A stretch of 5,118 nucleotides of DNA from a virus (lineage: Duplodnaviria > Heunggongvirae > Uroviricota > Caudoviricetes): positions 1 through 5,118 of IMG/VR virus record IMGVR_UViG_2548876946_000011, one strand, 5' to 3'. A program made the position numbers and the translations under genes. Positions within the stretch are counted from its first letter, which is position 1; each line of letters starts with the position of its first letter. This document shows, in pieces, positions 2,016-4,447 of this stretch. The notes beneath the pieces are model-generated. The model made no database searches and had not been told where the DNA came from. It was given only the letters and a program-made list of their open reading frames with translations.

Positions 2016-2842
2016 GCAATCCCCCTGTCTGCAAACTTCCCTTCCCGTACTCCAGTTAACGAATCTTCCCTCAGCAGGTAATCAAAATCAGCTGTCCAGC
2101 CCGTGTCGTTGTCTCCGAAGTAAAACGGCTTGGCCTGATGCACAAACGCCCTGACATACGCTCTGAAACCGTCCACGTTTGGCGTTTTCAGTTGCGGGAT
2201 GATTTTCTTCAGGCGGCGTTTGCGTTTCTCGTTGACCGCAACAGCGTGTGGCAGTCTGTCACCGACTTCGGTGTTGTAGGCGTTCAGGAAGGATTCATAG
2301 TCGATTCGTTCTGCCTTGCGACGTTCAGGTTTAACCTGCCCATCGCCGCCCCCGTTAGGGGGTAAGGGGGTATTTGTATTTATTGTCTTTTGTATATTGT
2401 CTTTTGTGTTTGACTGATTCGGTAAATTGCTTTTTACCGATTTGGTGAAGGTTTGTTTTACCGAATTGGTAAATGTTTTACCGAATCCGTTAACTTTCGT
2501 TTTCCACTCGGAAATGTTTGTATTCATACCAACTTGACGCCCCACCTGAATGAGAACTCCCATTCTGATAAGCTCGTTTTTGGCGGTAGAGCATTTGGTT
2601 GGTGCCATGCCAGTGAGTTCAGCGAACTGTTCGTTTCCGATCCAATCTATTTTTTTGTTGTAACCGTATGTCTTGCGCCACACAGCCATAACAATCAGTA
2701 ACTGATGTAGAGTAAGTCCAGAAAGCATGGCGGCTTCTAACAGTGTGTTTGCAGTCCGAGTGTAGCCATCTTCGAGTTCTGCCACGCGATGCTCCACGAC
2801 CTCCAGTTGAGGCCTGTAATCAGCTAACTTAACGACGCCCAT
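2012..2842 (-). CDS. O: Replication initiation protein, lambda O / P22 gene 18-like, 276 aa
   Basis: N-terminal region ...[59 protein letters not shown]...[11 protein letters not shown]...NISEW resembles the lambda O N-terminal iteron-binding domain (remembered LDDGYARLSNMLLEAY...ILRKTYGWNK...ISEW). The gene contains the iteron/AT-rich origin. Strong RBS AGGAGTG upstream of ATG 2842..2840. A Pro/Gly linker ([10 protein letters not shown]) precedes the C-terminal domain, which is expected to recruit the helicase. Confidence 0.9.
2371..2493. other. Candidate phage origin of replication (ori-lambda-like): four iterons plus an adjacent ~40-bp AT-rich region inside the O-like gene
   Basis: Iterons at 2409..2493 are followed, in the direction of O transcription, by the AT-rich segment 2371..2408 (tatttgtatttattgtcttttgtatattgtcttttgtg). 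This is the same order and scale as the lambda origin inside O. Assignment is by architecture only. Confidence 0.75.
2409..2493. repeat. Iteron array, 4 copies of an ~18-bp partially palindromic repeat (consensus about TTTTACCGAATTGGTAAA)
   Basis: Copies at 2409..2426 (tttgactgattcggtaaa), 2432..2449 (ttttaccgatttggtgaa), 2456..2473 (ttttaccgaattggtaaa) and 2476..2493 (ttttaccgaatccgttaa), spaced 23, 24 and 20 bp. Each has TTACC/GGTAA dyad arms. They encode a repeated peptide in the O-like protein ([16 protein letters not shown]). Confidence 0.75.
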
Positions 2843-2999: not shown

Positions 3000-3079
3000 T
3001 GTGGATTGATCCAGTAATTCCCTCAGAATTGCATATCAATTTGCTTAAAATCCTCGGTGGCGGCCGGGGATTTTTTCTT
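3000..3079 (+). ncRNA. Candidate OOP-like antisense RNA (about 80 nt), antisense to the 3' end of cII
   Basis: Plus-strand extended -10 motif TGtCATAAT (2985..2993) gives a predicted start near 3000. A strong intrinsic terminator at 3046..3079 lies inside the cII 3' coding region on the opposite strand. Position and size mirror lambda OOP RNA. Inference only. Confidence 0.35.
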
Positions 3080-3319
3080 TGTGATTTCATCAAGCGCATA
3101 CTTAAAAGCCCTGCTAATCGGACTGATGTCTGATGCCATTCCGAAAGCACACAAGACCGAAGCAATAAATCTCCAGTCCGTTCTGCTTATCTTCGATTCA
3201 TGACAGCCAATCATCTTTGCCAGACCGCGCTGGGTAAGCGTTGACAGGTTGATGAGTAAATCTGTTTCTGCGCGATCAATTTCTCGCTGTGTTGGCTTGC
3301 TGTAACTTGCTTGTGTCAT
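3023..3319 (-). CDS. cII: CII-type transcriptional activator (lysogeny establishment), 98 aa
   Basis: ORF-track protein ends ...DEITKKKSPAATEDFKQIDMQF, resembling the lambda CII C-terminus (...NKKRPAATERSEQIQMEF as recalled), with a central HTH-like segment (LAKMIGCHESKISR). It sits between cro and O as in lambdoid phages. A TTGC-N6-TTGC motif lies antisense within its 5' end. Confidence 0.88.
   Translation of the reverse strand: MTQASYSKPTQREIDRAETDLLINLSTLTQRGLAKMIGCHESKISRTDWRFIASVLCAFGMASDISPISRAFKYALDEITKKKSPAATEDFKQIDMQF
3046..3079 (+). terminator. Rho-independent terminator on the plus strand inside the cII 3' end (candidate OOP terminator)
   Basis: Stem 3049..3056 (atcctcgg) pairs with 3063..3070 (ccggggat): 8 bp including one G-U. 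Loop is tggcgg, followed by TTTTTTCTTT (3070..3079). A-T extensions on both flanks (3046..3048 / 3071..3073) could allow some bidirectional function. Confidence 0.65.
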
Positions 3320-3460: not shown

Positions 3461-3676
3461 TTAAGCAGCTTTGTGTTCCGGCGGGAACACGTCATCAAGA
3501 CTGACTTTTGCGCCTAACTTGTTTAGGCACTCAACAAGAGCACGGCATGTTTTAAGGTCTGGGAAGCGACGACCAGATTCCCAATGTCCGATAGCTCCCT
3601 GTGTGCATCCAACTGCCTTAGCAAGTGTTGTTTGAGAGATATTCAGTGACTCTCGATATTTTCGTAGGTTGCTCAT
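3461..3676 (-). CDS. cro: Cro-type HTH repressor, 71 aa
   Basis: Small HTH protein MSNLRKYRESLNISQTTLAKAVGCTQGAIGHWESGRRFPDLKTCRALVECLNKLG... divergent from cI, with a recognition helix very similar to that of the cI here (TQGAIGHW vs TQGGIGHW). Start at ATG 3676..3674 has an upstream GGAGGG. The track's longer start at 3703 lacks an SD and lies upstream of the predicted pR start. Confidence 0.85.
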   Translation of the reverse strand: MSNLRKYRESLNISQTTLAKAVGCTQGAIGHWESGRRFPDLKTCRALVECLNKLGAKVSLDDVFPPEHKAA

Positions 3677-3787: not shown

Positions 3788-4447
3788 ATGAAAATGAAAT
3801 GGTATGAACTGGCTAGATCCAGAATGAAAGAGCTAGGCATAACTCAAGAGAAGTTAGCTGAAGAGCTTGGTATGACGCAGGGTGGAATTGGTCACTGGTT
3901 GCGCGGATCTCGTCATCCATCTCTTGACGAGATTGGTGTGGTGTTTAAATACCTTGGTATTGATAACGTCTCATTCAACCACGACGGTACATTTTCACCT
4001 GTTGGCGAATACTCATCTGCCCCCGTTAAAAAACAATATGAGTACCCTGTTTTTTCTCATGTTCAGGCCGGGATGTTCTCGCCTGAGCTTAGAACCTTTA
4101 CCAAAGGTGATGCGGAGAGATGGGTCAGCACAACCAAAAAAGCCAGTGATTGTGCGTTTTGGCTTGAAGTTGAAGGTAATTCCATGACCGCGCCAACAGG
4201 ATCCAAGCCAAGCTTTCCTGACGGGATGTTAATTCTCGTTGACCCTGAGCAGGCTGTTGAGCCAGGTGATTTCTGCATAGCCAGACTTGGTGGTGACGAG
4301 TTTACCTTCAAGAAACTGATCAGGGATAGCGGTCAGGTGTTCCTACAACCACTAAATCCGCAATATCCAATGATTCCATGCAATGATAGCTGTTCCGTAG
4401 TAGGGAAAGTTATCGCCAGCCAGTGGCCTGAAGAGACATTTAGTTAA
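3788..4447 (+). CDS. cI: CI-type prophage repressor (HTH N-domain plus LexA/S24-like autocleavage C-domain)
   Basis: C-terminal portion [52 protein letters not shown]...[15 protein letters not shown] is almost identical to the lambda cI C-terminal domain as I remember it, including the Ser (GNSMTAP) and Lys (FKKLI) catalytic context. The N-terminal HTH ([23 protein letters not shown]) is unlike lambda. Start is uncertain: the longest ORF begins at 3746, but 3788 (MKMKW) or 3794 keeps the candidate operators in the intergenic region. AAGGG lies 7 nt before the 3794 ATG. Confidence 0.93.

Follow-up and report, generated by a model that had tools for sequence, protein, structure and literature searches.

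The window analysed here, which is the whole stretch of 5,118 nucleotides, very probably contains a P22-type lambdoid replication origin, which an E. coli prophage carries within its initiator gene. This assignment is based on 94-95% identity to the stretch annotated as rep_origin in phage P22, on the location within a gene of the Phage_rep_O family, and on an architecture that agrees with that of phage lambda to the base. The same lines of homology support the proposal of a preliminary description of this DNA that an origin is embedded in the O-like gene. The element is already known, since it represents the P22 version of the textbook lambdoid origin and public records carry an annotation of it. 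The value of its annotation in this prophage is that it marks the place where replication would start.

The window corresponds to the immunity and replication region of a lambdoid prophage (Table 1). It is matched by E. coli chromosomes, the best being strain Z1322HEC0003 with 100% identity over 92% of the window, and by the immunity regions of Stx phages at about 96%. The reading frames of the initiator, the helicase, cII, cro, cI and ninB are all intact, and the start of the helicase gene overlaps the stop codon of the initiator gene. The gene next after the initiator encodes a phage DnaB-family helicase and not a loader of the lambda P type, which is the arrangement of the P22 module. A PDB sequence search with the initiator found no solved relative. 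The plus strand also has, at 3047-3074, a strong stem-loop with a T-run behind it, which is antisense to the terminal part of cII; the annotated oop RNA terminator of P22 and lambda occupies this position, and Rfam gave no match to the stem-loop.

Table 1. Genes and origin elements in the 5,118-nucleotide window.
Feature	Position	Strand	Sequence	Remarks
ninB	125-565	minus		
DnaB-family replicative helicase gene, P22 gene 12 type	639-2015	minus		DnaB_C (E = 9.5e-78) and DnaB N-terminal domain; phrog_19
O-like replication initiator gene	2012-2842	minus		276 aa; PF04492 (Phage_rep_O, E = 4e-36, residues 19-113); TIGR01610; phrog_345
GC inverted repeat	2349-2370		CCCCCTTACCCCCTAACGGGGG (gene sense)	hairpin CCCCC-TAAC-GGGGG at 2349-2362; encodes PLPPNGG
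AT-rich tract, presumed DNA-unwinding element	2371-2409			39 bp; after iteron 4 in gene direction; starts with conserved ACACAAAAGA
Two tandem 14-bp units	2382-2409		ACAAAAGACAATAT then ACAAAAGACAATAA (gene sense)	preceded by AC
Iteron 4	2410-2426		TTTACCGAATCAGTCAA	-17 from ACACAAAAGA anchor; abuts AT-rich tract
Iteron 3	2433-2449		TTCACCAAATCGGTAAA	-40 from anchor
Iteron 2	2457-2473		TTTACCAATTCGGTAAA	-64 from anchor; nearest to perfect dyad
Iteron 1	2477-2493		TTAACGGATTCGGTAAA (gene sense)	first in gene direction; -84 from anchor, like lambda ITN1
Small conserved ORF	2829-2990	minus		
cII	3023-3319	minus		
cro	3461-3676	minus		
cI	3788-4447	plus		
N-like ORF		plus		

With regard to the iterons, the pattern TTTACCGAWTYGGTAAA was searched with up to three mismatches on both strands of all 5,118 bases. 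It matched at exactly four sites, each palindromic and detected on both strands, and nowhere else in the window, while 200 dinucleotide shuffles gave an expectation of 0.06 matches and never reached 8. The four dyad iterons of about 18 bp reported previously were thus recovered as four 17-bp dyad-symmetric units with start spacings of 20, 24 and 23 bp, which is roughly two helical turns, as expected of a lambdoid intragenic origin. They encode residues about 117-145 of the initiator, namely the junction between its N-terminal (PF04492) and C-terminal domains, where they also code for a repetitive inter-domain linker peptide, so the repetition is partly shared with protein constraint. A terminator scan proposed a terminator-like hairpin at 2433-2473, which was rejected because it consists of two adjacent palindromic iterons (2 and 3) inside the ORF. 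An Rfam scan of the window gave no match at E values up to 0.1, and therefore no known structured RNA accounts for the repeats.

The comparison with the P22 and lambda origins, recommended in the preliminary description, was carried out for the whole element. Over 191 bases around it, the window is 94-95% identical to phages P22, BTP1 and P6. In the P22 records (BK000583 and OQ031658), rep_origin at 32840-32984 in gene 18 corresponds to 2349-2493 of the window; with the C5/G5 inverted repeat counted as in the P22 record, the element reaches about 22 bp further to the left, to 2349. The P22 feature was itself annotated by similarity with phage lambda (BK000583), and our literature search for direct biochemical mapping of the P22 origin found none. 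Both phages have four dyads of the TTTACC type, three of which are identical in pairwise alignment, and share a 75-base block of AT-rich tract with its 14-bp pair and C5/G5 hairpin that is 100% identical. The differences from P22 are a few changes between the iterons, a C-terminal half of the initiator that is HK97/Stx-phage-like (100% identical to HK97 and 60% to P22), and the host, which is E. coli and not Salmonella. As a whole protein, the initiator is 92% identical to BTP1 O, 76% to P22 gp18 and 29% to lambda O. In iteron 2, the two central bases differ between the phages (AATT here versus AGAT in P22), and a GATC (Dam) site present in P22 and some relatives is absent here.

The AT-rich stretch of about 40 bp, also reported previously, is a 39-bp tract directly past the last iteron. 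Its GC content is 22.5% (2370-2409), and it is strand-asymmetric, with 26 of its 39 bases being A on the gene-sense strand (26/39 T on the plus strand). The nearest-neighbour free energy of the 40-mer at 2371-2410 is -42.8 against a mean of -54.5 (sd 3.9), which makes it the second least stable 40-mer in the window and the least stable one within the scanned coding stretch of helicase and O (639-2842). The 14-bp direct repeat was placed accurately by the preliminary description: attgtcttttgt occurs at 2382-2393 and 2396-2407, and TRF detects a period of 14 across 2373-2411. Of 20,000 shuffles of the 40-mer with matched composition, 87 gave its run of 13 matching bases at period 14. Beneath this repeat there is a sub-period of 7 bp at 2383-2411, where TTGTNTN occurs in four copies (ACAA every seven bases on the sense strand).

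The resemblance to lambda extends to the exact placement of the elements. The annotated starts of lambda ITN1-4 are 39034, 39054, 39078 and 39101, giving the same 20/24/23-bp spacing, and ACACAAAAGA follows directly after iteron 4 in both phages. Moreover, both origins lie at the domain junction of the initiator gene, are A-rich on the sense strand, contain four dyads of 17/18 bp, and carry a second ACAAAAGA about 1.5 helical turns on (period 15 in lambda and 14 here), with a diverged repeat pair in lambda at the position of the 14-bp tandem units. On the other hand, the half-site is TCCCTC in lambda and TTTACC here, the N-terminal domains of the initiators are only 43% and the C-terminal domains 22% identical, and the palindrome to the right of the AT tract is another one. 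In addition, the P protein of lambda hijacks the host DnaB, whereas the module here encodes its own helicase. In lambda and Stx phages, O binds the iterons and the AT-rich region opens (PMC7466680, PMC5043065); among the Stx phages, 933W and P27 have lambda-type iterons, six in number (PMC7466680). The iteron origins of plasmids (RK2, F, P1, R6K and pSC101) are similar in that an array of initiator-binding repeats adjoins an AT-rich unwinding element with short repeated motifs, but plasmid iterons lie beyond the rep gene and are direct repeats to which monomers bind (PMC5043065), whereas those found here are dyads for dimers inside the initiator gene. A plasmid-type iteron origin was rejected, since each unit is an inverted repeat within the gene.

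By analogy with lambda (PMC5043065, PMC7466680), dimers of the O-like protein would bind the four dyads via the N-terminal winged-helix domain, and the bound dimers would form an O-some in which the DNA is wrapped and bent. The O-some may then open the adjacent AT-rich tract on supercoiled DNA transcribed from pR. The C-terminal domain of the initiator would recruit the DnaB-type helicase that the phage itself encodes in the following gene, in place of lambda P and host DnaB, and bidirectional theta replication would start.

To get insights into the specificity of the origin, we collected 80 initiator relatives encoded on viral contigs and compared 84 loci, each anchored on ACACAAAAGA. The loci fell into seven half-site classes (TTTACC, TTAGCC, TTAGCA, GTCACC, GTTACC/GTTCCC, TTACCC and the lambda TCCCTC), and the dyads stood at -84, -64, -40 and -17 from the anchor in all of them. 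TTTACC was found in every locus with at least 84% N-terminal identity to the window and also in one locus with 61% (L082), while the C-terminal identity varied from 28 to 100%. Conversely, HK97-type genes have a C-terminal domain 100% identical to that of the window, an N-terminal domain with 45% identity, and the half-site TTAGCC. The half-site tracks the N-terminal and not the C-terminal domain of the initiator across the 84 loci, as expected if the N-terminal domain reads the iterons. A P22-type replication specificity distinct from that of lambda, as suggested in the preliminary description, is thus supported by this sequence covariation. The pattern also agrees with the literature on the specificities of P22 and lambda (PMC8022706, PMC3349717): P22 gene 18 contains four repeats of about 20 bp that are unlike those of lambda (PMC8022706), and repP22 specificity is described for the lambda hybrid hy106, in which P22 genes 18 and 12 are present (PMC3349717). 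In all ten divergent loci that were checked, the gene next after the initiator encodes a DnaB-family helicase, and judged by eye the helicase subtype appears to change along with the C-terminal domain of the initiator. Two loci (L070 and L071) represent one lineage with seven TTAGCNGAANNTGCTAA-type iterons of the TTAGCA class instead of four, at about 170 bp upstream of the anchor; their AT-rich motif pair is unchanged, and the arrangement recalls the six-iteron origins of Stx phages.

The initiator gene itself is a mosaic. Residues about 11-145, comprising the binding domain and the iterons, are P22/BTP1-like at 92%, while residues 1-10 and the C-terminal half show full identity to HK97/Stx-phage alleles. 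The phages HK97, Nil2, 2851 and 1717 share with the window the AT tract and hairpin (97-100% DNA identity over 2340-2417), the identical initiator C-terminal domain and the same type of helicase, but they differ in the TTAGCC iterons and the N-terminal domain. In HK97, the 75-base AT/hairpin block is 100% identical to the window despite the different iterons. This block, fully conserved in both lineages and situated at the right-hand junction of the mosaic, would be a natural crossover point. The replication specificity type of the prophage combines P22-type iterons and N-terminal domain with an HK97/Stx-type C-terminal domain and helicase, and its initiator illustrates the modular swapping of cassettes of origin plus binding domain among lambdoid phages.

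There is a possibility that the repeats merely reflect a repetitive linker peptide of the initiator and have no function as DNA, because the part of the protein encoded by the iterons is the inter-domain linker, whose sequence is repetitive, and because the C5/G5 inverted repeat encodes Pro-Pro-x-Gly-Gly, which may be under protein constraint. However, a repetitive peptide can be encoded without palindromes in the DNA, and nevertheless each of the units is a dyad; the dyads keep their fixed positions in seven classes with different peptides; the half-site switches with the DNA-binding domain; and in lambda O binds the positional homologues (PMC7466680). Moreover, a second CAAAAGA motif is present in most variants of the AT tract at a period of 14 or 15 and is therefore read in two frames, as IQK here and as ITK in lambda. 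Its retention in two frames points to constraint on the DNA rather than on the peptide; this is suggestive and, in such an A-rich tract, not decisive. Taken together, we consider the peptide explanation very unlikely. It is somewhat less improbable, though still unlikely, that the element is a P22-type origin by descent from which the prophage no longer replicates. The match of the window to E. coli chromosomes indicates a resident prophage, and related prophages with a broken initiator exist. Against this, the reading frames of the replication and immunity genes named above are not interrupted, the four iterons and the two-copy AT tract are complete, the AT module is identical to those of plaque-forming phages such as P22 and HK97, and the ori allele occurs at 100% identity in other E. 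coli genomes.

The two adjacent, nearly identical 14-bp units could also be taken for the result of a tandem duplication that took place recently, in this phage only, and altered the function of its origin, and the preliminary description indeed spoke of a tandem duplication. The repeat stands, but the duplication event in this phage does not, and we regard such an origin of the repeat as practically dismissed. P22 and HK97 have the two-copy sequence at 100% identity, it is found in exact form in at least 119 viral contigs, against two contigs with one copy and none with three, and lambda has its diverged pair at the matching position, so two copies are the standard state conserved in the family. 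In addition, 14 bp is not a multiple of three, and a gain or loss of one copy shifts the frame of the initiator. This is the case in both one-copy contigs (L086 at 6120-6150, the same contig as L079, and L087 at 7330-7360), where the frameshifted initiator reaches a stop 8 codons past the junction. One of them carries a BTP1-like allele and the other an allele identical to that of the window, indicating independent events. The one-copy form was not found in any of 35 complete E. coli genomes with a full P22-type ori. In prophages, the initiator may become inactivated by slippage at the tandem repeat, which would then be a hotspot for such events; two independent cases were seen, and assembly error is possible for them.

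As judged by this conservation, the 14-bp repeat is a fixed, conserved pair of ACAAAAGA motifs in the presumed unwinding element rather than a recent duplication. The first motif of the pair is invariant across the seven iteron classes. That the paired motifs form a sequence-specific element of the unwinding region, and are not mere AT-rich filler, is a tentative idea that we hold to be rather doubtful at present; they might, for example, serve the initiator as a contact site on single-stranded DNA or act as a mark for helicase loading.

Nearly all variants of the origin have an inverted repeat, mostly C5-N3/4-G5, right after the AT-rich tract (anchor +44 to +51, L001-L085). Other hairpins occupy this position in L058 (GTCATC/GATGAC) and L085 (CCGC/GCGG). 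The presence of a hairpin at a conserved place past the tract hints at a role at the DNA level, although C5/G5 also encodes Pro-Pro-x-Gly-Gly. Finally, in one locus (L084, 2310-3803), the downstream DnaB-type helicase is interrupted past Walker A (GARPKMGK) by a long unrelated insert, which from the translation looks like an intein.
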